A DNA stretch of 64,000 nt from NCBI GenBank assembly GCA_903919145.1, contig CAIXGW010000139.1:33927-97926 (forward strand). The letters are read 5' to 3'. Source of the stretch: an uncultured Myxococcales bacterium (GTDB lineage Bacteria > Myxococcota_A > UBA9042). Shown in pieces: positions 213 to 29,170 of the stretch. A model generated the notes under the pieces. That model had not been told where the DNA came from. It saw only the letters and a list, made by a program, of their open reading frames with translations, and searched no databases. The translations under genes and the position numbers were made by a program. Position 1 is the stretch's first letter, and the number at the start of each line of letters is the position of its first letter.

Positions 213-1925
213 CTACAGTTTCCTAATGCGCTGCGACGCCAGCAGCCTGCCGGCGTGGGCCAGCGCCGTGTCGCCTTGCCCTTCAACCGAGCCCAGCATA
301 CGCGCCAGCTCTTCCAGGCGGCCGGCTTCGTCTAGGACTTGCAGCTCAGAGCGGGTGCGGCCGCCGGCTTCGCGTTTGACGACCTGCACGTGGCAATCGG
401 CGGCGGCAGCCACCTGAGGCAGGTGCGAGATGCACAGCACCTGCTGGCGGGCGCCGATCTCGCCCAAAAACCGCCCAAGGACCAGCCCCGTGGTGCCTGA
501 TAGGCCGGCGTCCGCTTCGTCATAGACGGCCGTCGGCAGGTGAATGCCGCCGCCGGCCAGCTGGGCCTGGGACCACGCCGCATCGCCCAGGGCCCGCTGC
601 ACGGCCAGCAAAATCCGCGACAATTCACCGCCGGAAGCCACCTGGCGCAGCGGCCCGCCGGCCTCGCCCAGGTTGGCGCACAGGTAGAGCTCGGCCTCGT
701 CTAGCCCGGTGGCCCCCGCCAGCTCGCGCAGGGTCAGATCGACCCGCACCTGCGCAGAGGGCATGCCCAGCTGGCGCACCACCTCGGCAATTCGCTCGCC
801 AAGGGGCTGGGCCGCCAGCTGCCGCCGGGCACTGAGCTCGCGGGCCAGGGCCTGTAGATGAGCCTGCTGTTTGGCCAATTGCCGCTCGAGCTCGTCGATG
901 CGCAGCTCAGTGGTGTCTTGGTCCAGCTCGGCTGCGATGGCTTGCAGCTTGGCCAGCAGTGCTTCCTCTGAGCCGCCGTGCTTTTTGAGTCCGCGCAGCA
1001 GCTGGTCCTGTCGCTCGCTCAGGCGGCCCAGCTCGCGATCGTCGCGCGGCAAAGACCGCTGCCAGGCGCTGACGTCAAAGGCCAGATCCCCAGACAGGAC
1101 CTCGATTTCTTTGGCGCGATCGGCCAGCGCCCCCAGCCGATCGTCCACCGCGGCGAGGCGCCCCAGGCTGCGGGCTGCCTTGGCCGCCTGCTCGCCAATG
1201 CCACCGTCGCCTTCCAGCAGGGCTGCGACCTCGGCGCCCACCTGCAGCAGCTGGGCGTTGGCCTTGAGGGTCTTGATCCGCCCCTGAATCTCTGCCAATT
1301 CTCCGGGCTTGGGTCCCAGCTCGGCCAGCTCTTTGTGGACAAACCGCAAGTAGTCCAAGCGATCCGCCACCTGCCGCTGCCGCGCCTGCAGCCCTTCCAG
1401 CTCGGCGGCGGTGGTCCGCCACAGGCCATGGGCGCTCTCTACTTCTTGGCGCAGCGCGCCCTGGCCGCCAAAGCGGTCGAGCAGCTCCAGGTGCGCTGCC
1501 GGCTCCAGCAGCCGGTGCTGGGCGTGCTGAGCCGACAGATCGACCAGCGGAGTGGCCACTTGCTTGAGCTGCTGCGCTGTGACCAGCCGGCCGTTCAGCC
1601 AGCAGCGGCTCTTGCCGGCGCCCTTGCCGACCGTGCGCCGCAGCACCAGCGCGCCTTGATCGTCCAAAGGCACGCCAAGGTCACTGAGCAGAGCGAGCAC
1701 CAGCGGATCGACCACTTCGTCAAAAAGTGCTTCGACTTCGCAGAACTCTCTGCCGTGGCGCACCACTTTGTCGCTGCCGCGCCCCCCCAGCACCAGCGCC
1801 AGGGCGTCCAGCAGGATCGACTTGCCCGCGCCCGTCTCGCCCGTAATGGCGGTCAGGCCCGGACCCAGCGGGAGCTCGGCCGCTTCCAGGATCGCAAAAT
1901 CGGCAATGCGCAGGCAGGTCAGCAT
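213..1925 (-). CDS. recN: DNA repair protein RecN (SMC-like ATPase)
   Basis: 570 aa ORF. N-terminal Walker A region FAILEAAELPLGPGLTAITGETGAGKSILLDAL and the long coiled-coil middle with C-terminal ATPase half are typical of RecN. Lies 11 nt downstream of der in the same orientation. Confidence 0.9.
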   Translation of the reverse strand: MLTCLRIADFAILEAAELPLGPGLTAITGETGAGKSILLDALALVLGGRGSDKVVRHGREFCEVEALFDEVVDPLVLALLSDLGVPLDDQGALVLRRTVGKGAGKSRCWLNGRLVTAQQLKQVATPLVDLSAQHAQHRLLEPAAHLELLDRFGGQGALRQEVESAHGLWRTTAAELEGLQARQRQVADRLDYLRFVHKELAELGPKPGELAEIQGRIKTLKANAQLLQVGAEVAALLEGDGGIGEQAAKAARSLGRLAAVDDRLGALADRAKEIEVLSGDLAFDVSAWQRSLPRDDRELGRLSERQDQLLRGLKKHGGSEEALLAKLQAIAAELDQDTTELRIDELERQLAKQQAHLQALARELSARRQLAAQPLGERIAEVVRQLGMPSAQVRVDLTLRELAGATGLDEAELYLCANLGEAGGPLRQVASGGELSRILLAVQRALGDAAWSQAQLAGGGIHLPTAVYDEADAGLSGTTGLVLGRFLGEIGARQQVLCISHLPQVAAAADCHVQVVKREAGGRTRSELQVLDEAGRLEELARMLGSVEGQGDTALAHAGRLLASQRIRKL

Positions 1926-1936
1926 CGGTGGGCGCC

Positions 1937-3724
1937 TCAGCCAAAGTCGTCGTCGTCGCTGACCTTGGCGTTCAGGCGGGCGAACTCGTCGTCGTCGTCC
2001 GCGTCGTCCCAGTCGTCGCTCATGTCGTCGTCGTCGTCAAACAAGTCGGCGGGCGCCTGGGCCAGCACCTGCAGCCACGCCTCTTCGTCACCCGGCTGCG
2101 TCGCTGCGGCGGCGGCCACCTGGGCATCGGTCAGCTTCTTCTTCTTGCGCTGCGGCTTCTTGCGCAGCTCCAGCCGCACCGGTGATCCGGCGAAATCCCA
2201 CTCTTCGCGGATGCGCGAGATCAGGAAGCGCTCATAAGACGGCGAGATAGCGCCCAACAGATTGACCAGAATCACAAAGCGCGGCGGCCGCACAGACAGC
2301 TGGGCGCCGTAGCTCATCTTGAGCGAGCGCCCGCGGTACGTTGGCGGCTGCAGAATCTTTTGCTGCAGGCCGATCAAGAACTTGTTGAACTGGTGGGTCG
2401 GGATCCTCCGGTTAAAGGCCTCATAGGCTTGCAGCGCCGTGTCCAGCAGCTTTTCGACCCGCTGGCCGGTCTTGGCCGAGATAAATACCTTGGGGCAGTG
2501 CGCCACAAACGGCATAACCCGCTCAAGGTCTGCTTCATAGGCCAGCACGCTCTTGCCGTCTTTGCCCTCTACGGCGTCCCACTTGTTGATGGCGACTATG
2601 CAGGCGCGGCCGCGATCTTGCACCAGCGCGGCGATCTTGGCGTCCTGGTCGGCCAGCGGCTGGGTGGCGTCCAGCAGTACCACCGCCACGTGACTTCGCT
2701 CGATGGCGCGCACGGTTTGGCTCACCGAGTACTGTTCCACCGGGTCGTGGATCGAGCGCTTGCGGCGCAGGCCCGCGGTGTCGACCAGAACCATGTCGTT
2801 GTCTTTGTAGCTCAGCGGCACGTCAATGGAGTCGCGGGTGGTGCCCGGCATGTCGGCGGTAATGACCCGCTCGCTGCCCAGCAGCTTGTTGACCAGCGTG
2901 GACTTGCCGACGTTGGGCTTGCCAACAAAGCACACCCGCACCCTCTCTACGTGGCCACCGCGGACCACCTGGCGCTCCACGGGGCGGTCGTGATCGGGCT
3001 CGTTGTCCCAGCAGCCGCGCTCGGCCAGGGCTTGGGTCAGCGCCTCCTGCAGGTCCAAGAAGCCGCGGCCGTGCTCTGCCGCAATCGGGATCACGCTGTC
3101 AAAGCCCAGCGCATACATGGCCATGGCGTCGGCCTCTAGGCTTGGCGCATCGACCTTGTTGGCGACCAGGAACACCGGCTTCTTGGTGCGGCGCAGCACC
3201 AGCGCGATTTCCTCGTCGGCTGGCAGCAGGCCTTCGCGGGCGCAGGTCATAAAAATGATGGCCTCTGCCTGGCGGATCGCCACCTCGGCCTGGCGGCGCA
3301 TCAGCGGCAGCATGCCCTCTTTCTCGCTGGGCTCGAACCCACCGGTGTCAATCAGCACGATCTGGTGGTCGCCCAAGCGGGTCAACGCCTCTTGGCGATC
3401 GCGGGTCACGCCGGGCTTGTCAAACGTAATGGCGGTGCGCTCGCCGACCATGCGATTGAAAAGCGTGGACTTGCCCACATTGGGCCGCCCAACAATAGCC
3501 ACCAGCGGCGGCTGCCAATAGACTTCTTCTTCGACTTCGGCGGCTACTGCGGCGGGCGCAGCCTCTTGGACCTCTGGGGCCGGCCGCTCACTTCGCGCCT
3601 TCTCAAAAGCGCTAAGGGCGTCGGCCTCGATGACGTGAAAGCCAAGCGGCAGCTCTTCCATGTCCTGGTCTTCGTCGTGCTGGTCGTCCAAGTCGCGGGG
3701 CTTGGGGATCTCTGGGCTGGTCAT
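1937..3724 (-). CDS. der: Ribosome-biogenesis GTPase Der/EngA (double GTPase + KH-like domain) with acidic N-terminal extension and long C-terminal basic/poly-acidic tail
   Basis: Two G-domains (GRPNVGKSTLFNRM...DTGG and GKPNVGKSTLVNKLLG...DTAG), then a KH-like C-domain. Start chosen at ATG 3724, preceded by the strong SD CCAGGAGGCATCG; the ORF track extends to 3796. C-terminus ends ...KKPQRKKKKL...DDDDDMSDDWDDADDDDEF...DDDDFG. Confidence 0.85.
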   Translation of the reverse strand: MTSPEIPKPRDLDDQHDEDQDMEELPLGFHVIEADALSAFEKARSERPAPEVQEAAPAAVAAEVEEEVYWQPPLVAIVGRPNVGKSTLFNRMVGERTAITFDKPGVTRDRQEALTRLGDHQIVLIDTGGFEPSEKEGMLPLMRRQAEVAIRQAEAIIFMTCAREGLLPADEEIALVLRRTKKPVFLVANKVDAPSLEADAMAMYALGFDSVIPIAAEHGRGFLDLQEALTQALAERGCWDNEPDHDRPVERQVVRGGHVERVRVCFVGKPNVGKSTLVNKLLGSERVITADMPGTTRDSIDVPLSYKDNDMVLVDTAGLRRKRSIHDPVEQYSVSQTVRAIERSHVAVVLLDATQPLADQDAKIAALVQDRGRACIVAINKWDAVEGKDGKSVLAYEADLERVMPFVAHCPKVFISAKTGQRVEKLLDTALQAYEAFNRRIPTHQFNKFLIGLQQKILQPPTYRGRSLKMSYGAQLSVRPPRFVILVNLLGAISPSYERFLISRIREEWDFAGSPVRLELRKKPQRKKKKLTDAQVAAAAATQPGDEEAWLQVLAQAPADLFDDDDDMSDDWDDADDDDEFARLNAKVSDDDDFG

Positions 3725-3799
3725 CGATGCCTCCTGGGCATGGCGCGGCAGCTGCGCAGGCAGCGACGGCGGGGGCGGCGGCCGCAACGGCGGCAAAAG

Positions 3800-5338
3800 C
3801 TAATCGACCAGGTAGCCGAATTCGCGAAGTTTATCCAAGCGCTCGCTCCACGACGGCTCGATGCGCACATGGACTTCAAGAAACACTTTGCGTCCGCACA
3901 GCTGTTCCATCTGCAGCCGCGCCGCCGTGGCGATCTGCTTCATCCGCGAGCCCGCCTTGCCGACCAAGATGGCCCGCTGGGCCGGCCTCTCGACGTGGAC
4001 CACCACCTGGATGTGCGACAGATCCTCAAGCTCTTCATAGACCTCGGTCTCGCAGGCCACCCCATAGGGTACCTCTTCGCGGATCTGCAGAAACACCTGC
4101 TCGCGGACCAGCTCAGCCACCAAGTAGCGCAGCGGCCGGTCGGTCAATTCGTCAGGCGCAAAGGCCATTTCGCCCACGGGCAAGTAGCCTTCGATGGCGG
4201 TGATGAGCTGGCGCAGTCCGTCGGCTGTCCACGCGCTGACTGGCACCACCGGCCCGATGTGGGGGGCCGAATTCAGAGCCTGCATCACGGCAAGCAGGTG
4301 GCGCGGCTTGACCACGTCGATCTTGTTGAGGGCGACCATCCACTTGGTGGTGTGATCGAGGATCTGGCGGATGACGCGGCGGTCGCCTGGATGCAGGTGG
4401 TCGTCCAGGGGGATGCGCTTGGGCTTGGCCTTCTTCTCCGCCGCCTGGCCTTCAGCAGCCGCTGCTGCCGGCTCGGAGCTTTCTTCTGCGTCTTCGCTGT
4501 CTTCTTCGGCTTCTGGGCCGGTGGCGGGGCCCAAGCTGCCCGGCTGGCCACCGGCGGCAATCTGCAGCGCTCGCTGGCGATCAACTTCGGCGGCCCAGCG
4601 CGCGGCCTTGACGGCGTCGATGACCAGCACGACCACATCGACAGATTCCAGAGCCTCTACGGCCTGGCCGACCATGGCCCGGTTCAGTTGCGACCGCGCC
4701 TTGTGGATGCCCGGGGTGTCGATGAGGGCGATCTGGCTGCGCGGCGTGGTCAGGATGCCGCGCAGGTTGTCGCGGGTGGTCTGGGGCCGCGGGCTGACAA
4801 TCGAGAGCTTCTCTCCCAGCAGGCGGTTGGTCAGCGTGGACTTGCCGGCGTTGGGTTGCCCGGCCAGAGTCACGGCGCCACAGCGAAAACCCTCAGGACC
4901 AACGGGTTGATCTTGCAGATCTTCGTCTGACCAGGAGGTAGCGTGGTAGTCCGGCTCGTGGGGATGCTGCGGCGGCGCGACGGCAACCGGCGGCGCCGCG
5001 GCGGCCTTGGGGGCCGGCGCGCGCCCGCGCGGGTCGCTGGCTTGCGGCGCGCCACCGTTGGCTGGACGCTGATCCGCAGAGCGCGGCGCCTGAGGCGGGC
5101 GGCTCTGTGGTGCTGCGGGGCCGCCGCGACCCGGCTCGGCGGCGGGCGGCTGCCCCGCGGCGGGGCGGGGCCGCGCCGGCTTGCGGGCAGCTGCCGCGCG
5201 CGGATCGGCGGCGGCGCCATCGCCCTTGGGCAGAGGGTCGCGGATCTTGGAGCGGGTGCTGCCTTTTTCGCGCTTGGGGCGCGGCGGGCGTTGGCTGTCA
5301 AAGGGGGGGCGTCCACCGCGGTTCACGGCAATCTCCAA
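3800..5338 (-). CDS. era: GTPase Era (G domain + C-terminal KH domain); ORF carries a ~150 aa Pro/Ala/Arg-rich N-terminal extension (start uncertain) and an acidic insertion
   Basis: G1 motif AGQPNAGKSTLTNRLLG, G-domain, then KH domain (VVVHVERPAQRAILVGKAGSRMKQI). No in-frame ATG between ORF start (TTG at 5338) and the G domain, so the true start is uncertain. Acidic insert PEAEEDSEDAEESSEP... lies between the G and KH domains. Confidence 0.8.
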   Translation of the reverse strand: MEIAVNRGGRPPFDSQRPPRPKREKGSTRSKIRDPLPKGDGAAADPRAAAARKPARPRPAAGQPPAAEPGRGGPAAPQSRPPQAPRSADQRPANGGAPQASDPRGRAPAPKAAAAPPVAVAPPQHPHEPDYHATSWSDEDLQDQPVGPEGFRCGAVTLAGQPNAGKSTLTNRLLGEKLSIVSPRPQTTRDNLRGILTTPRSQIALIDTPGIHKARSQLNRAMVGQAVEALESVDVVVLVIDAVKAARWAAEVDRQRALQIAAGGQPGSLGPATGPEAEEDSEDAEESSEPAAAAAEGQAAEKKAKPKRIPLDDHLHPGDRRVIRQILDHTTKWMVALNKIDVVKPRHLLAVMQALNSAPHIGPVVPVSAWTADGLRQLITAIEGYLPVGEMAFAPDELTDRPLRYLVAELVREQVFLQIREEVPYGVACETEVYEELEDLSHIQVVVHVERPAQRAILVGKAGSRMKQIATAARLQMEQLCGRKVFLEVHVRIEPSWSERLDKLREFGYLVD

Positions 5339-5411
5339 GGGCGCGATCTAACGCGGCGCGGGCGAATCGAAAATAAGCGAGCAAGAACAGGCGTATAGGT
5401 CCAAATGGCGC

Positions 5412-7499
5412 TTATCTGCCCCGCCTGAGGGCGCACCAGTAGAACCCATCGGGACCAAAGCGCGCAAGGGGGTGAGAGGCCAGCCATGCGCCGTTGGCGG
5501 GGCCGATGCGCTCTTCTGCGACCTTGCTAAAGCCGGGCGCTGCCGCCAGAAAAGCTGCCACCACCCCTTCATTTTCGCGGCGCAGCAGGCTGCAGGTCGC
5601 GTAGATCAACCGACCACCGGCTTTGACGTGTTGGGCAGCGCGCAGCAGGATCGCCAGCTGCTGATCGGGAAAGCGCTCGACCCAAGAGCGGTCGATGTGC
5701 CAGCGCAGCTCTGGGTTGCGGCGCAGGGCCCCGGTGCTGCTGCAAGGCGCGTCTACCAGCACCGCATCGGCAGCGGCGACCAGATCCGCCAGGGGTTTCT
5801 CCAGCTTTTCCAGCACCCGGGTCTCTACGTGGACGTGGGCGCGCTCGGCCCGGCGCTTGCACTCGGCCAAGCGATCTGGGTGGGTATCGCAGGCGACCAG
5901 TCGGCCCTTGCCGCCCATGGCCGCGGCCAAAGCCAAGGTCTTGCCGCCGGCTCCCGCGCACCAGTCGATGACCGTCTCGCCGGGTTTGGCGGCGACGGCG
6001 GCGGCAATCCGCTGGCTGCCTTCGTCCTGGATCTCCAGCCGCCCGTCCTGGTAGGGCCGGGTGGCGGTGATCCGCGCCGGCTGAAGGGACCAAAGCGCAT
6101 GGTCCAAGCCGGGGATCGCCAGCGTGGCCAGGCCCTCTTCCAGCAGCTCGGCCGCCACTTGCGGGCGCTGGGCTCGGCTGGAGTGGACGCGCAGCGTCAG
6201 GGGGGCCCGCTGGTTGAGGTAGGCCATGGCAGCCCGCGAGTGGGCCGTCCCCAGCTCCTGGTCCAGCACCTGCACCAAGTCTGGGTGAAAGCCCAGCTGC
6301 ATGGCGGTCTTGTGAGGCTCTGGCAGGCTGCGCGCCGCAAAGGCAGCAGCCCGCAGGGCAACGGTCAGCTGCGAAGGCGCCGCCGGCCAGGTCGCAGCCA
6401 CGCCGGGATTGCGCTTGGCCAGGCCGTCAAGCGCGGTGCCCTCGCCCTTTTTCGCGGCGTCGCGCGGCTGGCCCGTGGCATCCAAGTCCCCCAGGGTCAA
6501 CAGGGCCGCCAGGCCGGCCATTTTGGAGGGCAAAGCCCTTGGATCTTGGGCAGTCTTGGGTGGAGGAGTGCCGCGCAGGGCCTGCACCGCCAGCGCCAAG
6601 TGATCCAAGCGGCGCAGGGCGTACCAGTGCAGCTCAGCAACAGCCTGGCGCTCTTTGCTGCCGAGCTGCGGATGCAAGCCCAGCGCCTGCTCCAGCGCTT
6701 GGTCGGCGTAGCGCAGTTCCTGGTCCAAAGACCGGCGCAGGGCTTCGCCCAGGGTCAGGATTCCCACTGGCCGCAGGTAAAGGGGCTTCTTCTCTTCCGC
6801 TGGGTCCGGGCGCAGCTGCAGGTAGGCCGCCAACCACGCCATGGCGCGTCCGCGGTGGCTGACGGCGTGCTTGGCGTGGGCGTCTGCTTCGGCGAAAGTC
6901 GCGCCCAGGTCATCGCTCAGAAATAGCGGGTCATAGCCAAAGCCGCCTTCGCCGCGCTCTTCCTTGAGCATCTGCCCGCGGGTCTGGCCAGCAAAGGCGC
7001 GCCACGGCAAGCCGCCCTCGCCGCGGCCGCACCCCGGGCCCTCCGCCAGCGGGCCGGCGAGGACCAAGGTGCACTCAAACCAAGCCGACCTATCGTCCGC
7101 CGTGGCCAGATCCCCTAGGAGTTTTGCCCGATTCAGGGCATCGACGCCGCTGCGATCGCGGTCAGGCGCGGCACCAGCCCAGCGGGCGCTGCGCACCCCT
7201 GGCCGGCCCTGGAGAGCGGTGACGCACAAGCCAGAGTCGTCCGCCAGTACGCTGGTGGTCAGGTCCCCGGCGGCGCGCAGGTGGCTGAGGGCCGAAAGGG
7301 CCTTCTTCAGGCTGTTGGCAAGGAAGGTGTCGCCATTTTCTTCTACCTCTGGCAGCGGCGTGCGCTTGGGGGCGGCCCACTGCGCTGGGCTGATCACCTC
7401 GACGCCAATGTCGAGGCACAGGGCGGTTAGCTCATCGATTTTTTTGCCGTTGCCGCTGGCAAGCAGCAGGCGTGGACGGGCAGGGGCTGGCGAGCTCAT
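5412..7499 (-). CDS. Fusion protein: N-terminal Ham1/RdgB-type non-canonical purine NTP pyrophosphatase (~240 aa) + C-terminal RsmB/Sun-type 16S rRNA m5C methyltransferase (NusB-like + NOL1/NOP2/Sun MTase)
   Basis: N-terminus LLLASGNGKKIDEL ... FGYDPLFLSDDLGATFAE...KHAVSHRGRA is the Ham1 signature. C-terminal half has the SAM-MTase motif VIDWCAGAGGKT, catalytic VLVDAPCSSTGALRRNPE and GGRLIYATCSL (RsmB). One continuous 695 aa ORF. Its ATG at 7499 overlaps the S8 protease stop (ATGA). Confidence 0.75.
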   Translation of the reverse strand: MSSPAPARPRLLLASGNGKKIDELTALCLDIGVEVISPAQWAAPKRTPLPEVEENGDTFLANSLKKALSALSHLRAAGDLTTSVLADDSGLCVTALQGRPGVRSARWAGAAPDRDRSGVDALNRAKLLGDLATADDRSAWFECTLVLAGPLAEGPGCGRGEGGLPWRAFAGQTRGQMLKEERGEGGFGYDPLFLSDDLGATFAEADAHAKHAVSHRGRAMAWLAAYLQLRPDPAEEKKPLYLRPVGILTLGEALRRSLDQELRYADQALEQALGLHPQLGSKERQAVAELHWYALRRLDHLALAVQALRGTPPPKTAQDPRALPSKMAGLAALLTLGDLDATGQPRDAAKKGEGTALDGLAKRNPGVAATWPAAPSQLTVALRAAAFAARSLPEPHKTAMQLGFHPDLVQVLDQELGTAHSRAAMAYLNQRAPLTLRVHSSRAQRPQVAAELLEEGLATLAIPGLDHALWSLQPARITATRPYQDGRLEIQDEGSQRIAAAVAAKPGETVIDWCAGAGGKTLALAAAMGGKGRLVACDTHPDRLAECKRRAERAHVHVETRVLEKLEKPLADLVAAADAVLVDAPCSSTGALRRNPELRWHIDRSWVERFPDQQLAILLRAAQHVKAGGRLIYATCSLLRRENEGVVAAFLAAAPGFSKVAEERIGPANGAWLASHPLARFGPDGFYWCALRRGR

Positions 7500-10400
7500 T
7501 CGGCGCTCCGCACGGGTAGGGTGAGCAGGAGGGTGCGGCCGTCGTCGCCCAGCAATTCCACGCGACCGTGAACGCGAAATCCCTTGGGCGGCTGCGGCAA
7601 TGGGTCAGCGGCGCTGATGGTCCAGCGGCTGCTCTGGTAGGGGTACAGCTGAAGGTGGGCGCCAGCTTCGCCCGGTCCTTTGACCTGCAGCGCCACCGGC
7701 TTGGCCAAGATCAGCCGCTCTTTGATGTTGATTTTCCAGGGGTCCTTGCGAACTTTGGCAAAGCCGGCAGAGACTTCCAGGGTGTAGCGGCCTTCGGCGC
7801 CCTTGCGGCTCCAGCGCAGCTCGGCCCGCGGCGATCCAAAGGCCGATTCCGCCACAACTTCTCCGGCAGCGTCGCGTACGGCCACCGCCACATCGGTGCA
7901 GGTGTCGTAGAGGCGTCGGTCCAAGGTCAGCACCACCTCAGCAGAGCTGACGGCTGGCCCCAGCGTGATGGGGTGGCTCAGCTTGTCGGTCTCGGCCTTG
8001 ATCTCTTGGCTGCGCTCCCAAGCGTCAAGCTGGCCGCGGGCCGTGCCGCGCAAAACCGCCGCCCCGTGCTGGACCAGCTGGACCTTGGCCGTGGGTGCCC
8101 CGCCTGACTCCGCAGCCAGCTCGGCGCGGCCCTTCTGGGCCACCGTGCCAAAGCGAACTTCGACGTCAAAGACGCTCTCTTCGCCGGGCGCTATCCACGC
8201 TGAGGCCGTCAATTCCCAAACGCCCGGCGTCAATTCCTCGCCCTGGGCCAGCCACTCGGCATCGGTGCCATCTTTGCTGCTGGCCCAGCGCTTGACGGGT
8301 CGCTGGCGGCTGCCCTCTGGGTCGTACAGGGCCAGCGCCACCTGGCTGTGCAGGCTGCCGCGGCGCTTGAGGGTCACCACCGCCTGCTGGGCGCCGGCCG
8401 GCACGGCGATCGGCAACCGCCACACCTTGCCAGCCCGCAGCTTGACGCCCTCCCAGCGGTGCGCGTAGCCCTCTGCCGGGCTCGCCTCCCAAGGCACCAC
8501 CACGGTGACCTGGTGCACAAAGCTCGCTTCGTCTTCTGCAGCCCCCGGGTCGCGCGCCGTCAGCCGGCCGACGTAGACGCCGGGGGCCTTGAGCTTGGCT
8601 GGCAAAATCCGTACTTCAAAGGGGCTTTCTCGCTCGCCGCGCACCTGCAGCCGCGGGCGCAGGACCTGCAGCCAGTCAGCCTGGCTCTCTATGTCCAGCA
8701 CCTGGGCGAATTGGCCGCGCTGGTCGGCGCTCCAGCCCGATGGCAGGTATGCCTTCACATCAACAAAGAAAACCGCGGGATTATCGCTTTGCCAACCGGC
8801 GCGCAGGTAGGTGGCGGGCATGGTCTCCCCGTCGCCGCGCGGGGCATGGCTGGCCTGGTTCCAGCCAAGCACTTTGGACTCTGGCCGCTTGACCAGCCGC
8901 CGACCCAGGGCGATGGCCGCCGGCACGTCGATCATGCCGTGGCCCTGATCCAGCGGGCTGTAGCCAGCCAGTGGCCGGGCGCTGAACTGCAAGGCCCGCC
9001 GCACGATGCCGCTGTGCAGGCCGCGATCCAAGGCGCCGCTGCCATTGCTAGGGCCGTCTTGCAGCAGCGCTGCCCACACCAGCAGCATGGCGCCCGCGGC
9101 TTGCGGCGAGGCCATCGAGGTGCCCTGCTTGATCTCGTGGCCATCCCACACCGGGACCGAGGCGCTGGCTGCGCCTGGCGCGACCACCTCTGGTTTGGCC
9201 AGCTCGCCGCCGCGCGAGCTGAAGTTGAATAGCTCGGTCTGGTCCAGGCGGCCGCCATAAAGCGACGCGACCGCCTCTTTGGGCAGGGCCGCGCCAATGG
9301 CCATCGCCAGATCGGCTGCCGCTGGCGAGCCCACAGAGCTGAGGCCGGGCCCCTCGTTGCCGGCAGAAAAAGCGATGGTCAGCAGCGGGAATTCCTGAAC
9401 CAGCCGATCGACCTCGCGGTCCAGGTCTCCCTTGCCCTCGGTGCCGGCGGGGATGCCGTAAGAGGCGTTGACCACCACCGGCAGGCCGTGGCTGCGCGAC
9501 CACTCGCCGGCGTAGCGCAGAGCCTTGGCAAAAGCTCCGGTGGGAGTGGCGCCGCCAGAGCGGGCATTGTGGCCGATCTTGAGCGACAAAATCTGCGCGC
9601 CCGGGGCCACGCCATCCCACCCTTGGCGGCCAAACATTTGATAACCGGCGATAATTCCGGCCACATGGGTGCCGTGGCTGCCGTCGGTGAAGTGCAGCTG
9701 AGCGGTACTGGTGGCCCACGCCGGCTCAAAGGCGAGGCTCAGCTGTGTCGCCACCTTGGTCCCAGCCGGCTGGGGCGCCAGCAGTAGCTCTTGGGCCACG
9801 CGGTACGGCCGCACGCTGGGCTCTTCGGCCAAGTCGCCGTCACCATCCCAGTCGATCGCCAGCCGGGCGTCCATGGGCCCGCTGCCGGTGCGCCAGACGA
9901 CCACGGTCAGCTCGCCGTCATCGCGGCCATCTTTGTTGAGGTCGCGCAATTTCTCTGGACCAATGGATTTTTCGCGGAAACTGCCGATCCACCACTGGCC
10001 GTCAGCCGCAGCCGGCAGCTTGCCGACCGCCGCGGTCTTGCCGTTGGTGAGCAACGCGACCTGATCGGCGCCGCTGCCGCTCAAAGCCGCTGGCTGCAGG
10101 GTCACATCGCCTTGCCCAGAAAAATCGAGGGCTTCAATCACTTTTGGACGACCGTCGCTGGTGCGCTGCAAGCCCTGAGCTAGCGGATCGACGCCGGTGT
10201 CCAGGACGGCCACCACCAAGCCGCGACCATCCAGCTTTGGAAATTGCTGGATTTGGCTGCGGGCGCGCATTGCTTCGGCGGGCAGGTAGTCGCCCCAGGT
10301 CTGGCTCTGAGCGCTGGCAGGGGCAGCTGCTGGCGCCGCAGCTGCAGCTTGGGCCTGGGCCGCCGCGGGCGTCAGAGCCGTTGCACACAGCGTGATGGCA

Positions 10401-10639
10401 GCAAGCAGGGCCAGCGGCGAGGGGCCGCGCACCGTCAAGAAGCCGCGTCTGGTTTGCTTGGGGTGCAAAGGCCGGCCTGGAAGCCCAGTTTTTGCAGGGG
10501 GAGGGGCAACAGGCACAGGATCTCCCGCTTCAAAAGGTGGCCAGCCAAGGGCGCGCGCATGGTAGCGGATTTGCGCGAAAAGGCAAGCGAAAACCGCGGC
10601 ACTGCGGCCAAGCGCAGCCGGCCAGGGCGCGCAAGCCAT
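7496..10639 (-). CDS. Secreted subtilisin-like serine peptidase (MEROPS S8) with large C-terminal extension; twin-arginine (Tat) signal
   Basis: Catalytic triad motifs VAVLDTGVD (Asp), HGTHVAGIIAG (His), GTSMASPQAAGA (Ser). N-terminal TRRGFLTV Tat motif followed by a hydrophobic/Ala-rich signal region. Exact start uncertain (ORF track start 10639). Stop overlaps the downstream fusion gene start. Confidence 0.8.
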   Translation of the reverse strand: MACAPWPAALGRSAAVFACLFAQIRYHARALGWPPFEAGDPVPVAPPPAKTGLPGRPLHPKQTRRGFLTVRGPSPLALLAAITLCATALTPAAAQAQAAAAAPAAAPASAQSQTWGDYLPAEAMRARSQIQQFPKLDGRGLVVAVLDTGVDPLAQGLQRTSDGRPKVIEALDFSGQGDVTLQPAALSGSGADQVALLTNGKTAAVGKLPAAADGQWWIGSFREKSIGPEKLRDLNKDGRDDGELTVVVWRTGSGPMDARLAIDWDGDGDLAEEPSVRPYRVAQELLLAPQPAGTKVATQLSLAFEPAWATSTAQLHFTDGSHGTHVAGIIAGYQMFGRQGWDGVAPGAQILSLKIGHNARSGGATPTGAFAKALRYAGEWSRSHGLPVVVNASYGIPAGTEGKGDLDREVDRLVQEFPLLTIAFSAGNEGPGLSSVGSPAAADLAMAIGAALPKEAVASLYGGRLDQTELFNFSSRGGELAKPEVVAPGAASASVPVWDGHEIKQGTSMASPQAAGAMLLVWAALLQDGPSNGSGALDRGLHSGIVRRALQFSARPLAGYSPLDQGHGMIDVPAAIALGRRLVKRPESKVLGWNQASHAPRGDGETMPATYLRAGWQSDNPAVFFVDVKAYLPSGWSADQRGQFAQVLDIESQADWLQVLRPRLQVRGERESPFEVRILPAKLKAPGVYVGRLTARDPGAAEDEASFVHQVTVVVPWEASPAEGYAHRWEGVKLRAGKVWRLPIAVPAGAQQAVVTLKRRGSLHSQVALALYDPEGSRQRPVKRWASSKDGTDAEWLAQGEELTPGVWELTASAWIAPGEESVFDVEVRFGTVAQKGRAELAAESGGAPTAKVQLVQHGAAVLRGTARGQLDAWERSQEIKAETDKLSHPITLGPAVSSAEVVLTLDRRLYDTCTDVAVAVRDAAGEVVAESAFGSPRAELRWSRKGAEGRYTLEVSAGFAKVRKDPWKINIKERLILAKPVALQVKGPGEAGAHLQLYPYQSSRWTISAADPLPQPPKGFRVHGRVELLGDDGRTLLLTLPVRSAE

Positions 10640-10756
10640 TGGTGCGGCAGCTTGACCACACCGCCATTTGGCGTCACAGTGTTGCGTGCGCCGCTGCTGG
10701 GCGCTCTTGCCGAACCACGCACGCTGCCCGCAGCTGTTGCAAGTGGTTCTCGGAGA

Positions 10757-11710
10757 ATGACCATGGTGTTCCGCTCACCTCGCCGCCCCCGCGCGCGCTC
10801 CCTCTTGGCCTGGTTGTCTCTGGTTGCGGTGGCCTTTGCTATGGCCTGTTCTGGCCAGAGCATGAAAGACCCTGACAATGATGAGAAAAAAGAAAAGTCC
10901 CGCCCGTTCAAGTCCACCGAGGCCACCAAGGACCGCTTGGACGACAACCAGGGTGACCGCGAGGACTGGCGCTACTGGCTGGCCGAAAAAGACGGCACCG
11001 GCGAGATCCGCGTCGAAGTCAGCAAATGGGAAGACAGCACCACCCTGACCGCCATGGTGACGGTATTCGACGAAGCGGGCACGCGGCTCATCGAAAAGCC
11101 CATGAACCAGTCGTCCAATCCCAAAGTGCAAGAGCAGTTTCCCGTCGAGAGCGGCCGCAAGTACTACGCGCGCTTCAAGCTCATCAGCGGCAAGGGCGAG
11201 TACATTGCTGAGATGAGTGAGCCTTTGGACCCGTGCTCCGCCTGCACTGACAAGCAGGAGTGCCAGGAAGGCAAGTGCGTAGACAAGCCTTGCGGAGGCG
11301 GCTGCCCTGAGGGCAAGGCCTGCGACAAAGAGAAGAACGAGTGCGTCAAGGTCGAGAAGAAGGCTGAGAACAAGTGCGAAGGCGTCACCTGCCCCAAGGG
11401 CGAGGTCTGCCAGCGCGCCACGGGCAAGTGCGTTGTGCCGGTCGCCCGCCCACCGGACCCTGCCGAGCCGGCCAAGCCCACCGGCGTCGACTGCGACGTC
11501 ATTGATGCGCGCGATGCTGGAGGCGGCTCTGTCCTGACGCTTTCGGCCGGAGAGAACCGCGGCGTTCGCAAGGGCATGTCAGGCTCGGTCAAGGGGGTAA
11601 AAGGCGCCAACTTCACCGTGACCGAGGTGTACCCCAGCCGCTGCAAGGCCTCCTGCAAGGTGCCCGCCGCCAAGCTGTCTGGCAAGACCAAAGCCTCGAT
11701 CAAGCTTTGA
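10757..11710 (+). CDS. Hypothetical Cys-rich secreted lipoprotein
   Basis: ATG at 10757 (MTMVFRSPRRPRARSLLAWLSLVAVAFAMAC|SG) gives a signal peptide plus lipobox-like Cys. Lys/Glu-rich region, then a cysteine knot-like segment CSACTDKQECQEGKCVDKPCGGGCPEGKACDKEKNECV...CEGVTCPKGEVCQRATGKCV. The upstream part of the 10244 ORF is rejected as non-coding extension. Confidence 0.55.
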   Translation: MTMVFRSPRRPRARSLLAWLSLVAVAFAMACSGQSMKDPDNDEKKEKSRPFKSTEATKDRLDDNQGDREDWRYWLAEKDGTGEIRVEVSKWEDSTTLTAMVTVFDEAGTRLIEKPMNQSSNPKVQEQFPVESGRKYYARFKLISGKGEYIAEMSEPLDPCSACTDKQECQEGKCVDKPCGGGCPEGKACDKEKNECVKVEKKAENKCEGVTCPKGEVCQRATGKCVVPVARPPDPAEPAKPTGVDCDVIDARDAGGGSVLTLSAGENRGVRKGMSGSVKGVKGANFTVTEVYPSRCKASCKVPAAKLSGKTKASIKL

Positions 11711-11766
11711 GGCCCGCGGTCCATCCCCGGCTGCTGATTCGAGACGAGGCGCCACAAGCCTTGAAA

Positions 11767-13521
11767 GTGTATGCGCCACAGCCACCTCTGCAAACCCTGA
11801 CGCTGGCGCCACCGCCACTGCCCCCGCGCCGCTTGACCCAGCTCGGCCGCACCGTGGGGCTGGTGCTTGGCTTGGCGCTGGTAACAGCTTGTTGCGGAAA
11901 GCAGACACCGTCTCCAGCTATAGCGCCAGCCAGGGCTGAGCCGGCCAAGGTTGGGCCGGTCGGTGCCGGGCCAGTTGGGGCCGCTCAGGCGCCAAGACCT
12001 GCCGTACAGCCTAGAAAAGGTAAAAATCTACTGCAGTTGCCTCATGTGACTCTGGTCGCCGTGACGGACTGGCAGGCCACCCTCAAGCCGTGCGGCTGTA
12101 CCCTGGATCTACAGCGCGGCGGCGTTGAGCGGCTGGCGCATTGGCTGGAACTGCAGCGCAAGCAGGACGATTCTCTGGTGGTGGTCCATGCCGGCAGCCT
12201 GCTGCAAGAGGATGAGCCCCATACTTCGCCGGCCAAGCTGGCCCAGGTAGAGCTGCGGCGCGAGGTATTTGGTCAAGCTTTGAAACAGCTGCAGCTGTCA
12301 GCAGTCGCGCTGTCGCGCTGGGACCTGGCCCAGGGCGGTGCCACCGTTGCCGCTGCCTATCAGAAGCTGGAAGCGGTCGTGCTGACCTTGAGTCCGGCGC
12401 CGGGGCTGCAGACCCGCAAGAGCCTGCTCGTCAAGACGGCCTCTGGCGTAACGGTCGGGCTGTTGGCCGTGGACCCGGCGGATGCGCCAGAGGATTTGGC
12501 CCGCCACCAGCTGGTGGGCGCCGAAGTGCAGGTGCTGCGCCAGCAGGGAGCCCAGCTGGTCGTGGCCTTGGCCAACACCGGTCTGCGGGCTGGTCGAAAA
12601 TTAGCGCGCCAGGTCAAGGGTTTGGATGTGGTGGTCATTGGCCAGCTTGACCCCAAGACCGAGCCGAGCCTGGACCTGGACCGCGAGGGAGACGTGCTGC
12701 TGCTTCACGCCACCCGCCACGGCGCCTGGGCCGCGGCGCTGACGCTGGCGCCAGAGGGCGACGGGTCGTGGCAGGAGGCGTCGCAGTTCTTGCCCGACCA
12801 AGCCGAGGCCCTGCGCGGCCGCATCGCCGTGGCCAGCAAGCACCTGCTGGATCTCAAGGGACGGGCGTCGCTTTCGATCGAGCGGGCATTGCCAATGTAC
12901 CAGGCGCAGTTGGATGACCTGGCGGCTCGCCTCAAGGCCGCCGAGGGGGCAGCCAACCAAGAGCTTCCAGCCGGGCGCTTGGGCGCGTACCGCAGCGTTG
13001 GGCTGGACTGGTCGGCGCCCACCCAGCCCCAATTGGCGGCCCTGGTGGCGGCCTATGACGCCGAAGTGGTCAAGGTTGCCGAAAAGCTGGCATCGACGCC
13101 GCTGCCCCCCAAGGCCGGGCAAGCCAGCTATGTGGGCCAGGCAGAGTGTCTGGGCTGCCATGAAGGCGCCGCAGCCTTTGCCAAGCAGAATCCCCATGCC
13201 AAGGCTTGGAAAACCTTGGCCGATGGCGCTCGCACCCGCGACTTGGACTGCGTGCCCTGCCACACCACCGGCTGGGGAAAGCCGGGGGGAGCGGCGTTTG
13301 CCAACGTGGCAAAGTTCAAAGATGTTCAGTGCGAAGCCTGCCACGGTCCCGGGTCGCAGCACGTGGAGGACCCAGAACAAGCCGGCCTGCTGACTCCAGC
13401 CAACGCCAACGCTTGCGCTCCGTGTCACAGCCCAGAGCACTCGCCGCGCTTTGCCTTTGACTTGTACGTCCGTCAGCTCAAGGTGCTGGGCCACGGCCGC
13501 CCGCCAGTGGCCAAGCCATGA
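11767..13521 (+). CDS. Multiheme c-type cytochrome (four CXXCH motifs in the C-terminal ~130 aa) with a large uncharacterised N-terminal domain; probable lipoprotein
   Basis: Heme-binding motifs CLGCH, CVPCH, CEACH, CAPCH near the C-terminus. N-terminal RRLTQLGRTVGLVLGLALVTAC|CGK looks like a lipoprotein signal. Start is approximate (TTG/GTG candidates at 11761-11767; the ORF track begins at TTG 11707, directly after the upstream stop). Confidence 0.7.
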   Translation: MYAPQPPLQTLTLAPPPLPPRRLTQLGRTVGLVLGLALVTACCGKQTPSPAIAPARAEPAKVGPVGAGPVGAAQAPRPAVQPRKGKNLLQLPHVTLVAVTDWQATLKPCGCTLDLQRGGVERLAHWLELQRKQDDSLVVVHAGSLLQEDEPHTSPAKLAQVELRREVFGQALKQLQLSAVALSRWDLAQGGATVAAAYQKLEAVVLTLSPAPGLQTRKSLLVKTASGVTVGLLAVDPADAPEDLARHQLVGAEVQVLRQQGAQLVVALANTGLRAGRKLARQVKGLDVVVIGQLDPKTEPSLDLDREGDVLLLHATRHGAWAAALTLAPEGDGSWQEASQFLPDQAEALRGRIAVASKHLLDLKGRASLSIERALPMYQAQLDDLAARLKAAEGAANQELPAGRLGAYRSVGLDWSAPTQPQLAALVAAYDAEVVKVAEKLASTPLPPKAGQASYVGQAECLGCHEGAAAFAKQNPHAKAWKTLADGARTRDLDCVPCHTTGWGKPGGAAFANVAKFKDVQCEACHGPGSQHVEDPEQAGLLTPANANACAPCHSPEHSPRFAFDLYVRQLKVLGHGRPPVAKP

Positions 13522-13665
13522 TCAAGGGGCTGGGCAAGCTAGCACCCAAGACCGTGAATTCGATCCGGGTTACACCCGGTTCTTGTTCACGGGTCTTGGC
13601 TACTACTACTGGGTCTTCTTCCGTACCCCAAACCACGTCCGTTCCGGAACCCGGAACGAATTTGG
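13522..13665 (+). repeat. Copy A of a ~150 nt conserved intergenic element (second copy inverted at ~58420-58585); contains perfect palindrome GTTCCGGAAC followed by CCGGAACG
   Basis: By-eye alignment to the reverse complement of 58420-58585 gives about 80% identity over ~135 nt (shared blocks CCCAAGACCGT, GTTACACCCGGTT, TGTTCAC, CTTCCGTACCCCAA, CCGTTCCGGAACC). Sits exactly between the cytochrome stop (13521) and the next gene. Neither translation frame is conserved between the copies (one frame hits a stop in copy B), so it is non-coding. Confidence 0.6.
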
Positions 13666-14414
13666 GGGTTGGGGTACTAGTCAGGGCGCTGTTTGTCTTG
13701 TGGGTCATCGTCGCCGCCACCCAGCCAGGGCTCGCCTTGGCCTCTCAGGACCCGGTCGACCCGCACAGCCGGCCACCGCTGTCGACCGCAACGCCAGAAG
13801 AGCCGGCCGCGCCCAAGGATTTTCTCTACGACGGCAACCATGTTGGCCTGATGCTTGGGCCGGTGTTCAGCGGCCTGGACCGGGCCCTGCCGGGGCTGGA
13901 TCGCAACGGCACGGGGCTGCGCCTGGGCGGGCGGATCTCCGCCATTACCCAGTTCATTGACGGCGGCGTCGACCTGCAGCACGTCGAGCACGGCGGCAGT
14001 GCGGCGAGCCTGAGCCGCACCGAGCTTGGCGTACGGGTTGGCAGCCATCCGGCATTTCCCTTTGTGGTCTTCAACAGTTGGATTAACGATGTCATCAGCG
14101 GCGTCCACCTGTACGTCGGTGCGTCGGTGGGGCGGCTGGCGCTGCAGGGGCAACAGGCGGTGGCGGCGGTGGGGCTGGACGGGACCAGCGCCGTGCAGTG
14201 GCGCCCCAGCGCGCTGGTGGGCGTCGGCGCTGACTTGCCGGTGTCGCCGCGCCATCGCCCCAATGGCTGGTGGTTGACCCTGCGCTATGAGCTGCGCTGG
14301 ACTGGCTTTGGCAGCACCGCGCCGCGCCACAACCTGGACGACAGCATGGTGGGGGTACTGCTGGGCTACCGCAGCTACAACAACAGCTGGGCCCGCTGGT
14401 CTCGGCCCTTCTGA
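13662..14414 (+). CDS. Hypothetical secreted protein, possibly outer-membrane beta-barrel
   Basis: TTG at 13662 gives signal peptide (M)GVGVLVRALFVLWVIVAATQPGLALA|SQDP. Alternating hydrophobic beta-strand-like pattern and Gly-rich turns (e.g. VGSHPAFPFVVFNSW, WWLTLRYELRWTGFG). An ATG at 13518 overlapping the upstream stop exists but would make element A coding, so it is disfavoured. Confidence 0.45.
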   Translation: MGVGVLVRALFVLWVIVAATQPGLALASQDPVDPHSRPPLSTATPEEPAAPKDFLYDGNHVGLMLGPVFSGLDRALPGLDRNGTGLRLGGRISAITQFIDGGVDLQHVEHGGSAASLSRTELGVRVGSHPAFPFVVFNSWINDVISGVHLYVGASVGRLALQGQQAVAAVGLDGTSAVQWRPSALVGVGADLPVSPRHRPNGWWLTLRYELRWTGFGSTAPRHNLDDSMVGVLLGYRSYNNSWARWSRPF

Positions 14415-14458
14415 GGCCGCCCCAACGTCAAAGCGATCGCTGGGTGCTTCTGTGGGGC

Positions 14459-16321
14459 CTAGCGGCGAGCAGCGATGACAAACTCGACCCGGCGGTTCTG
14501 ACGGCGTGCTTCTTCGGTCTTGCCCGCAACAATGGGCTTTTGTAGGCCAAAACCGCGCCATTGCAGCCGGTTGGCCGGCACGCCAAGGACAACCAGCTGG
14601 TCGTGAACGGCGCGGGCGCGGGCCTGAGAAAGAGCCATGTTGTGATCGGCCGTGGCGGCGTCGTCGGTGTGGCCGTCAACAGAGAGCTTTAGAATTTCTG
14701 GGTGTTCCAGCAGCAGCAGAGCCACCTGCAGCAGCAAAGGCCGAAATTCGTCGCGGACCACTGCGCTATCGCTGTCGAATTCGATGCGCTGGGCCACGCC
14801 AATGTGCGAGCCATGCAACCTGGGCGGCGGACAGCCGTTCAGCAGGCGGTGCTCGCTCTTGGGGCCGACCACATTGGGGCAGCGGTCGTCGTCGTCGCGA
14901 ACCCCGTCACCGTCCAGATCGCCTGGACAACCGTTGATGCCCGGCTCGGCGTTGGGCCGGCCCACGTGGTCGGGGCAGGCGTCCTGGGCGTCGGCAATGC
15001 CGTCGCCGTCTCTGTCGGCTGGGCAGCCGCTGCGCTCGGCGCTGCTGGACTCGGGGCCGGCGGTGCCCGGGCAAGCGTCCAGGCTGTCGGGGACGCCGTC
15101 GCCGTCCAAATCCGGGCAGCCGTTGTGATCGCGCCGCGGACTCAGCCGGCCAGGCTGGGCGGGGCACGCGTCGGCGGCGTCGACCGCGCCGTCTCCGTCG
15201 CTGTCTGCCGGGCAGCCGTGGCCGCTGGATTCGCCATGGCGGATGCCGGGCATGGCAGGGCAGGCATCGCGGCGGTCGGCCACGCCGTCGCCGTCGCGGT
15301 CAGGGCAGCCGGGCGACTCGGCGCCCACTCCGGCGGGTCCGGGCTGGTCGGGGCAGGCGTCCAGAGGATCCGGCACGGAATCGCGGTCGCGGTCGACCAC
15401 TACCGCCGCCGCGCCGCAGCCGCCCTGGCGCAAGCCGGCAGTGGCTCGCCAGCTGACCGCGCCGGGGCCTTGCAGGCCGCCGCCGCCCATGCCGGCAAAA
15501 GCCTCCCAATTCTGGCCAAAGCAGCGAGAGCCACCCAGGGTAAACTCCGCGGCGCCGGCGCCGGCGATGCGCGACCACGCCAGCGGCGCTGCCAGAGAGG
15601 CCTCGCCCAGCAGGCCCCAGCCGTCGCCGATAGCTTGACGCAAGCCGATGCCACCTCGCGTTTCCGAGCCAAAACTGGTCGGTCCCAGCTCGACGGGCTG
15701 GCGGGCCCACACTCCCCAGTTGCCCAACGCGCTGGTGCCGCCGCGCTGCCATTCCAGAATGACGCGTACTCCGCCCGAGACACCACTGTCGCCAGCGAAA
15801 CTGCCGCTGCCGGCGCTAGGCAGGCCCAGCTCAGCGCCAAACGCCAGCTGCAGGCCGTTTTGCCTGCCCGGGACGGTCGCCAGGGCTGCTATGCGGATGT
15901 CTCCAAGGGCCGCACCTGAGGGAGGCTGCAGGCCGGCGGCGGATGCTTCGCCGCGGTTGATCACGGCCAAGGGCACGCTCAAACCGGCTGACAATCCTGG
16001 ACTAACTCGCCAGGCAGCGCCCAGCTCCAGGGTGGCAAGGTCAGAGACCACGGCCGCTTCGTTGTGCCCAGAAGCCGAGCCAAACACCAAAGGTCTTGAG
16101 GCCCAGCTGGCAAAGCCGCTGGCCTGCATCGGCGCCTGATCGGCCGCCGCCGGCGCCCACAGCGACAGCCAAGAGCCTGCCCAGGGCGCCGGCTGAAATC
16201 GTTGGAGATTCAACGCTGGCGCGGCAGCACTGGCAGGGCTGACGCCCAAGGCTGGTGCTCCAGCTCCCACCGCGACAAACAACAAGGATCGCAGGATACT
16301 GTGGTCGATGCGTAGCATCAT
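14459..16321 (-). CDS. OmpA-family outer-membrane protein with central thrombospondin type-3 (TSP3) Ca-binding repeats and C-terminal OmpA peptidoglycan-binding domain
   Basis: Six repeats of type DRDGDGVADRRDACPAMPG / DLDGDGVPDSLDACPGTAG. C-terminus NMALSQARARAVHDQLVVLGVPANRLQWRGFGLQKPIV...NRRVEFVI is the OmpA_C signature. Start ATGATG at 16321/16318 gives MMLRIDHSILRSLLFVAVGAGAPALG; the ORF track start 16399 is rejected. Confidence 0.8.
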   Translation of the reverse strand: MMLRIDHSILRSLLFVAVGAGAPALGVSPASAAAPALNLQRFQPAPWAGSWLSLWAPAAADQAPMQASGFASWASRPLVFGSASGHNEAAVVSDLATLELGAAWRVSPGLSAGLSVPLAVINRGEASAAGLQPPSGAALGDIRIAALATVPGRQNGLQLAFGAELGLPSAGSGSFAGDSGVSGGVRVILEWQRGGTSALGNWGVWARQPVELGPTSFGSETRGGIGLRQAIGDGWGLLGEASLAAPLAWSRIAGAGAAEFTLGGSRCFGQNWEAFAGMGGGGLQGPGAVSWRATAGLRQGGCGAAAVVVDRDRDSVPDPLDACPDQPGPAGVGAESPGCPDRDGDGVADRRDACPAMPGIRHGESSGHGCPADSDGDGAVDAADACPAQPGRLSPRRDHNGCPDLDGDGVPDSLDACPGTAGPESSSAERSGCPADRDGDGIADAQDACPDHVGRPNAEPGINGCPGDLDGDGVRDDDDRCPNVVGPKSEHRLLNGCPPPRLHGSHIGVAQRIEFDSDSAVVRDEFRPLLLQVALLLLEHPEILKLSVDGHTDDAATADHNMALSQARARAVHDQLVVLGVPANRLQWRGFGLQKPIVAGKTEEARRQNRRVEFVIAARR

Positions 16322-23017: not shown

Positions 23018-23230
23018 GAGCCAAGACCGTTCCTTGGATGCGGGTCACACCTGATTCTTGTTTACCGACCTTGGTTTGGCTGTTGGGCCTTGCTTGATAG
23101 CCAAAGACCTTGGGACAGCCGGCAGCGCCGCGCCCAGACCTGCTCTCTGGCGGGCGCAGCGACCCAACCTGGCAGCCCCGGCGCCCGCCTGAGAGCCTCG
23201 CCGCCCCTGCCCAACTGCCTTGGCTTATTG

Positions 23231-23236: not shown

Positions 23237-23320
23237 CGCCGACCGCGATGCCGACGCCCGCGGCACGCCCCTGCGGCGCCGATCCGTTCCACAGTTGACT
23301 TGCCGTTCCAAGAGGTTTCC

Positions 23321-29167: not shown

Positions 29168-29170
29168 TCC

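Follow-up and report, generated by a model that had tools for sequence, protein, structure and literature searches.

The window analyzed here, a 64,000-nt stretch of contig CAIXGW010000139.1 from an uncultured Myxococcales bacterium, carries on its minus strand a single ATG-to-stop open reading frame (ORF) of 695 codons plus the stop codon (positions 5412 to 7499). The encoded protein is predicted to join a Ham1/RdgB-type nucleoside triphosphate (NTP) pyrophosphatase to a 16S rRNA 5-methylcytosine (m5C) methyltransferase of the Fmu/RsmB type. The gene stands between an S8 peptidase gene and the genes for the GTPases Era and Der (Table 1). Its start codon, at positions 7497-7499, and the TGA of the peptidase gene share the 4-bp overlap ATGA, which suggests translational coupling, and GGAG lies ~7-10 nt upstream of the ATG.

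Profile searches place the Ham1 domain and the RsmB-type module one after the other within the ORF. Pfam detects Ham1p_like at residues 11-225 (E = 5e-46), RsmF-B_ferredox at residues 408-474 and Methyltr_RsmB-F at residues 501-659 (E = 5e-34). Among the NCBIfam models, the XTP/dITP diphosphatases cover residues 10-228 and the RsmB models residues ~260 to 693. The alignment with the closest standalone relative of the second half (P0123, 450 aa) begins at residue 242, which sets the module boundaries at 10-228 for Ham1, 229-241 for the linker and 242-695 for the RsmB-type module. The Ham1 motifs LLASGNGKKIDEL, FGYDPLFLSDDLGATFAE and SHRGRA listed in the first-pass annotation were all located in the N-terminal part, and the methyltransferase motifs VIDWCAGAGGKT, DAPCSSTG and GGRLIYATCSL in the remainder. 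The junction proposed there (~6780-6800) corresponds to residues 234-240, inside the linker; the peptide AAYLQLRPDPAEEKKPLYLRP reads through it in a single frame with neither stop nor frameshift. The G+C content at third codon positions (GC3) is ~0.8 along the full ORF and does not shift at the junction, the pattern of a single reading frame.

The first-pass annotation had read this ORF as a fusion of Ham1/RdgB with RsmB, and had named as the main alternative an assembly or sequencing indel that joined adjacent rdgB and rsmB genes through stop loss or a frameshift. Such an event is possible a priori for a contig derived from a metagenome-assembled genome (MAG), but independent assemblies, divergent relatives and selection all bear out the fusion. 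Contigs assembled independently, from different samples and with different assemblers, encode the exact 695-aa protein. When 5.8 billion proteins were searched with a word index, 52 clusters with the same Ham1 and RsmB Pfam architecture were recovered at 45-100% identity, drawn from NCBI, ENA, JGI and Logan data; all but two span 98-100% of the query. Comparison with orthologous loci gives the same picture. One genome per GTDB species was scanned, which gave 34 fusion loci; all 29 that hold the whole gene have an uninterrupted frame over both domains. Measured against the orthologue L001 (81% identical), the ratio of nonsynonymous to synonymous substitution (Ka/Ks; Nei-Gojobori method) is lowest in the methyltransferase (0.08) and the helical domain (0.09), 0.11 over the junction (aa 215-260) and 0.21 in the Ham1 part, indicating purifying selection in each of the four segments, junction included. 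The independent identical copies, the clusters from four data sources, the open frames, the linker conserved in length and sequence, the low junction Ka/Ks and the uniform GC3 together exclude an indel, to which we assign a negligible probability. The gene is a conserved fusion and not an assembly artefact.

The N-terminal module matches Ham1p_like (PF01725) over profile positions 1-185 of 186 with 157 bits against a cut-off of 22.5, a full-length member of the family. In alignments with Escherichia coli RdgB (1k7k/2pyu), the triphosphate-site residues Lys13, Lys53 and Arg87 (PMC3899018) correspond to K20, K66 and R106 here, and the acidic metal/catalytic residues E41 and D68/D69 to E54 and D87/D88. 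The FGYD motif (F154-G-Y-D in E. coli) is found at F187-D190, K177 aligns with K210, and S-H-R-G occupies S214-G217. All of these positions are invariant in an alignment of 24 family members with 46-90% identity. In RdgB and ITPA structures, the FGYD and K...SHRG residues serve in purine recognition. Foldseek superimposes the domain on 4bnq, 1k7k and 3tqu with template-modeling (TM) scores of 0.86-0.90, normalized to the target; identity to the solved bacterial RdgBs is ~33-35%. Higher identities of 43-49% are reached with standalone RdgBs of ~200 aa from many phyla. A search with the Ham1 domain alone returned only such ordinary RdgBs of ~200 aa (40-49% identity), so there is no close standalone donor. 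As judged from its sequence, the domain is an ordinary RdgB-type domain.

Two elements around this domain are peculiar to the family. A β-hairpin of the Ham1 fold carries an insertion of ~11-13 aa with invariant G149, P150, A152, G154 and G163, which is modeled as ordered, with predicted local distance difference test (pLDDT) values of 88-95. The alignment comparison shows no such insertion in the RdgBs of E. coli, Coxiella and S. aureus or in fusions of RNase PH with Ham1. The inter-domain linker has a constant length over the family and runs into a conserved R/KPLYLRPxG motif; the 24-member alignment contains no conserved internal Met within it. It is the sole pLDDT dip (69) in the AlphaFold2 (AF2) model of the full-length protein, which has an overall pLDDT of 90 and a predicted TM score (pTM) of 0.86.

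The C-terminal module belongs with the RsmB/F-type cores, with 118 bits against the PF01189 cut-off of 27. Its S-adenosylmethionine (SAM) motif I (D512-WCAGAGGK520), motif IV (DAPC586S) and motif VI (TC636S) do not vary in the family alignment and align with those of E. coli Fmu. Cys586 and Cys636 align with the motif IV cysteine (Cys325) and the motif VI nucleophile (Cys375) of that enzyme, respectively. The first-pass annotation also described a NusB-like region ahead of the core. This is borne out by structure only: the isolated middle domain is NusB-like, whereas Pfam is blind to the region and at E ≤ 1 reports no NusB in residues 229-430, only a chance OHCU_decarbox match. The NusB-like RNA-binding N-domain that discriminates RsmB from RsmF is therefore present at the level of structure. 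The fusion model matches the whole Fmu structures 2yxl and 1sqg over 475-480 columns, with TM scores of 0.75-0.78 normalized to the target. The nearest standalone relatives of the module are proteins of ~420-450 aa from Acetobacteraceae, Burkholderiales and metagenomes, at 36-45% identity. By architecture the module is of the Fmu/RsmB type, with C967 of 16S rRNA as its most likely target, and one polypeptide is thus predicted to combine an RdgB/Ham1 module and a complete Fmu/RsmB-type module with the catalytic residues of both intact.

Table 1. Positions in the 64,000-nt window of the fusion gene, its parts and the adjacent genes
Feature	Position	Strand	Basis
Whole fusion ORF, 695 aa + stop codon	5412..7499	-	ORF, Pfam, homologue search
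Predicted RdgB/Ham1 non-canonical purine NTP pyrophosphatase domain, aa 10-228	6816..7472	-	Pfam, NCBIfam, alignment, Foldseek
Family-specific insertion of ~11-13 aa in Ham1 β-hairpin, aa ~149-166, GPLAEGPGCGRGEGGLPW	7002..7055	-	Alignment, structure comparison
Inter-domain linker, aa 229-241, QLRPDPAEEKKPL	6777..6815	-	Alignment, AF2 model, Ka/Ks
All-helical NusB-like N-terminal domain of RsmB/Fmu module, aa 242-430	6210..6776	-	Structure comparison, P0123 alignment start
Ferredoxin-like lead-in and predicted class I SAM-dependent m5C RNA methyltransferase core, aa 431-695	5415..6209	-	Pfam, NCBIfam, Foldseek
Cys586 codon, aligned with motif IV Cys of E. coli Fmu/RsmB, invariant	5742..5744	-	Alignment
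Cys636 codon, aligned with motif VI nucleophile Cys of E. coli Fmu/RsmB, invariant	5592..5594	-	Alignment
era (GTPase MMR_HSR1 + KH_2), 73 nt downstream of fusion	3800..5338	-	Pfam, synteny
der/engA (2x MMR_HSR1 + EngA KH_dom-like), 3 nt after era	1937..3796	-	Pfam, synteny
S8 subtilase-like gene, 1047 aa, stop overlaps fusion start	7496..10639	-	ORF, Pfam, synteny

The fusion is confined, as far as the searches extend, to one group of bacteria. All 34 loci come from MAGs; their records are labeled Myxococcota, Myxococcales or Deltaproteobacteria, or have vaguer or obviously placeholder names, and most of these MAGs were recovered from lakes (Baikal, Mendota, Swedish lakes, Zurich) or groundwater. 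An exhaustive phmmer search over 1.84 billion representatives at 50% identity gave a single full-length representative of the fusion (P0049), together with fragments of other fusions; of these fragments, P0122 belongs to a 90% cluster containing a 718-aa Myxococcales protein. The remaining top matches are all standalone RsmB-like proteins. Since any other Ham1 and RsmB fusion would score near the top, the architecture seems limited to one clade of uncultured, mostly freshwater Myxococcota and probably had a single origin. An unfused intermediate with adjacent, separate rdgB and rsmB genes was not found at the loci examined, and the closest standalone RsmB-like genes (P0123 at L088 and P0129 at L089) are neither preceded by a Ham1 gene nor followed by era. 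Several of the MAG records with the fusion and era-der (L008, L012, L017, L023, L027, L030) are titled 'uncultured Enterobacteriaceae bacterium' or 'Klebsiella pneumoniae', and 'Asaia bogorensis' is the title of several Acetobacteraceae-like matches; the taxonomic labels of these public records are apparently placeholders or wrong.

Homologues of the Ham1 half lead to a different set of partners. Fused proteins of ~440 aa that combine RNase PH with Ham1 (PF01138 + PF03725 + PF01725) are found among the matches, and the nearest unfused Ham1 genes lie in rph-rdgB-lepA clusters. These clusters (positions 5261-9452 of L090 and 4146-8438 of L091) read rph-(metallophosphatase)-rdgB-(ROK)-lepA, with RdgB beside RNase PH and the translational GTPase LepA/EF4. 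Neither rph nor lepA is found near the fusion in the window or in 38 related loci; the usual rph-rdgB context is thus not retained. One further match, P0075 (513 aa), hits the Ham1 domain twice (residues 135-326 and 306-418) in addition to an RNase_PH_C domain. Part of Ham1 seems to be duplicated within this protein, possibly through an oddity of assembly or gene calling.

The era-der context described in the first-pass annotation is confirmed, with both genes downstream and verified by Pfam, and the synteny is conserved across related loci. Of the 32 related loci with DNA downstream, 31 show the order fusion→era→der on one strand by tblastn, so the fusion gene is part of a conserved co-directional fusion-era-der cluster. 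At L084/L085 and L087 the upstream genes are divergent, which makes the fusion the first gene of the cluster, and here it either overlaps era or precedes it by 39 nt. The S8 peptidase neighbor is confined to a sub-clade (also L001, L010, L012 and L030) and lies outside the conserved unit. In our window, der is followed by a gene for an SMC_N/AAA_23 protein. A scan of positions 1500-11500 detected no promoter-like site, and terminator-like sites were rarer than in shuffled sequences; within the 64-kb window we found no paralogues of either half and no Rfam RNA family.

Both downstream GTPases have extensions. The Era homologue is unusually long, 512 aa as the longest ORF, with a Pro/Ala/Arg-rich low-complexity N-terminal extension of ~150 aa, which may be real because several related loci align from residue 10-20. 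An acidic insertion of ~60-70 aa (…PEAEEDSEDAEESSEPAAAAAEGQAAEKKAKPK…) splits its GTPase domain, with MMR_HSR1 ending at residue 245 and GTP_EFTU resuming at residue 318. In the Der/EngA homologue, the N terminus is extended by ~95 aa, and the EngA KH-like domain is followed by a C-terminal tail that is strongly acidic (…DDDDDMSDDWDDADDDDEFARLNAKVSDDDDFG). Elsewhere in the window, positions 23090-31600 (plus strand) encode a bacterial α2-macroglobulin of 2025 aa (A2M_BRD, bMG3, bMG10, MG2), directly followed by a PbpC-type penicillin-binding protein (Transgly + Transpeptidase + BiPBP_C), the classic A2M-PbpC pair. Two giant proteins are encoded farther on. One of 2491 aa (37401-44876, plus strand) contains Dictyostelium CTDC repeats (E = 2e-91) and NHL repeats, and one of 1914 aa (47111-52855, minus strand) contains MopE-type putative metal-binding motifs (E = 2.5e-72) and thrombospondin type 3 repeats.

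We consider it likely that Ham1-RsmB is a bifunctional protein that arose once and is maintained by selection, with two independent activities co-expressed with ribosome-assembly factors. The N-terminal module would hydrolyze (d)ITP and (d)XTP to the monophosphate and pyrophosphate, and would thereby keep deaminated purines out of nucleic acids. The C-terminal module would act on naked or early-assembling rRNA and methylate a 16S rRNA cytosine, most probably the RsmB target C967. The two catalytic cycles would be chemically independent. Fusion would then enforce 1:1 co-expression of NTP-pool sanitation with rRNA maturation, jointly controlled with Era (30S) and Der (50S), and the NusB-like domain may bring the NTPase close to nascent rRNA. 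The fusion looks like another instance of the association of RdgB with genes for stable RNA and translation, as in rph-rdgB-lepA clusters and RNase PH-Ham1 proteins.

Several observations weigh against this picture. The Ham1 domain misses the RdgB equivalog cut-offs of NCBIfam (116 vs 145 bits for TIGR00042 and 153 vs 234 for PRK14822), its score being lowered by the insertions and divergence. The L016/L086 lineage carries the fusion without era-der. At L086 (P0037, a Baikal MAG; positions 7229-15318) a divergent gene for an RluA-type pseudouridine synthase lies upstream, and an unknown gene, mutL and miaA lie downstream; with the pseudouridine synthase gene and miaA as neighbors, RNA-modification genes are near the fusion there too. 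The methyltransferase module falls below every RsmB equivalog cut-off (208 vs 540 bits for NF011493, 189 vs 319 for NF011494, 178 vs 269 for TIGR00563 and 167 vs 375 for NF008149), so 'RsmB, m5C967' is an assignment by architecture. The module may accordingly be a Fmu-like paralogue with another rRNA or tRNA cytosine as its target, in genomes that would then have a separate, true rsmB elsewhere. The wide shortfall on all four models favors this, as do the closest standalone relatives, which also miss the cut-offs and are named by NCBI only 'RsmB/NOP family'. However, the RsmB models are the best matches by far (208 bits vs ≤107 for the RsmF, Nop2 and tRNA m5C models), a NusB-like domain followed by the methyltransferase is the Fmu/RsmB architecture and is absent from RsmF, and an operon with the 16S-binding GTPase Era suits a role in the small subunit. 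We give the paralogue a minor but appreciable chance. The RsmB assignment of the first-pass annotation thus stands on the model ranking and the Fmu architecture, and fails at the equivalog level.

The remaining counterpoint concerns the independence of the two halves. The pTM of 0.86, the rigidly conserved linker and the conserved Ham1 insertion hint at a fixed inter-domain packing, which could mean functional coupling. One form of coupling is mechanistic, with the Ham1 module destroying modified or aberrant nucleotides tied to the chemistry of its partner; candidates are m5CTP or m5dCTP from the turnover of m5C-RNA, or ITP and XTP in the local pool that feeds rRNA synthesis. Maf pyrophosphatases provide a precedent. 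They have the inosine triphosphatase (ITPase)-like fold, are structural relatives of RdgB and favor m5UTP, m5CTP, pseudo-UTP and m7GTP as substrates. Many eukaryotes have them fused to predicted methyltransferases (human ASMTL), and Maf genes also adjoin methyltransferase genes, 'suggesting a functional relationship' (PMC3899018). The triphosphate and purine-pocket residues of RdgB/ITPA (FGYD, K...SHRG) are, however, all unchanged in Ham1-RsmB, the best family models are XTP/dITP diphosphatases, and the domain is 43-49% identical to ordinary standalone RdgBs. We also know of no Ham1 enzyme that acts on pyrimidine NTPs, and a mechanistically coupled enzyme appears improbable to us. A broader functional link between nucleotide-pool sanitation and rRNA modification is likewise doubtful: Ham1, held on nascent 16S rRNA by the NusB-like domain, might clear ITP/XTP or modified NTPs of the m5CTP type from the nucleotides that supply rRNA transcription or turnover, or its nucleotide occupancy might gate the methyltransferase, with the family-specific insertion as the inter-domain interface. 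Finally, the Ham1 module could be a non-enzymatic appendage of the methyltransferase for dimerization, nucleotide sensing or regulation. RdgB-family proteins are homodimers, so the domain could dimerize its partner, and its Ka/Ks is more than twice that of the RsmB part. That ratio still reflects strong purifying selection, and the catalytic and substrate-binding residues are invariant down to 46% identity, which is unexpected for a pseudo-enzyme and leaves this explanation with very little probability. A bifunctional protein with two independent activities remains the reading we prefer.

Each half of the fusion differs from its characterized counterparts. Compared with E. coli RsmB (Fmu/Sun; 1sqf/1sqg) and Pyrococcus PH0851 (2yxl), the RsmB module is 22-23% identical and its NusB-like domain is ~40 aa longer; the fusion also differs from both in its N-terminal Ham1 domain and its scores below the NCBIfam cut-offs. 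To our knowledge, no characterized RsmB carries an N-terminal Ham1 domain. The Ham1 half resembles E. coli RdgB and human ITPA in spanning the full-length domain with the catalytic and substrate-contact residues kept. Unlike E. coli RdgB, it is not a free-standing protein of ~200 aa, has the hairpin insertion and scores under the RdgB equivalog cut-offs.

As a composite, the protein has several analogues. Maf-methyltransferase fusions such as human ASMTL also place an NTP pyrophosphatase of the ITPase-like fold N-terminal to a SAM-methyltransferase-like domain (PMC3899018), but these eukaryotic proteins combine Maf, not Ham1, with an ASMT-like rather than an RsmB/NOP partner. The two fusions have independent origins and are related by analogy, not by homology. 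RNase PH-Ham1 fusions and rph-rdgB operons similarly join Ham1, physically or operonically, to an enzyme of stable-RNA maturation; there the partner is a 3' exoribonuclease and Ham1 is C-terminal, whereas here it is N-terminal. RlmKL (YcbY) is a further precedent (PMC3367195): this bifunctional protein of ~700 aa was made by fusion of two genes that other bacteria keep apart, and each of its halves is active in ribosome biogenesis. In RlmKL the two are both rRNA methyltransferases, whereas one half of Ham1-RsmB is predicted to act on free nucleotides.

In Ham1-RsmB, two well-known families are combined into a domain architecture that is new. The novelty does not extend to the catalytic chemistry, since each half is a textbook enzyme. 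We found no published account of the fusion in the searchable literature library, and public annotations are inconsistent, ranging from 'class I SAM-dependent methyltransferase' and 'hypothetical protein' to '16S rRNA (cytosine967-C5)-methyltransferase' and 'non-canonical purine NTP pyrophosphatase'; recognizing these proteins as bifunctional would improve annotation. A clade-wide, selected fusion ahead of era and der is 'Rosetta-stone' evidence, a guilt-by-association clue, and suggests that RdgB-type pool cleaning is tied functionally to stable-RNA and ribosome biogenesis, not to DNA fidelity alone. Consistent hints come from rph-rdgB operons, from RNase PH-Ham1 fusions and from the Maf-methyltransferase fusions, which are themselves unexplained. 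Should the functional link considered above hold, Ham1-RsmB would be a bacterial counterpart of the ASMTL-type fusions. The fusion is a natural single-polypeptide system for probing the coupling of pool cleaning to rRNA modification, and a clean synapomorphy of a poorly known lineage of freshwater and marine Myxococcota.

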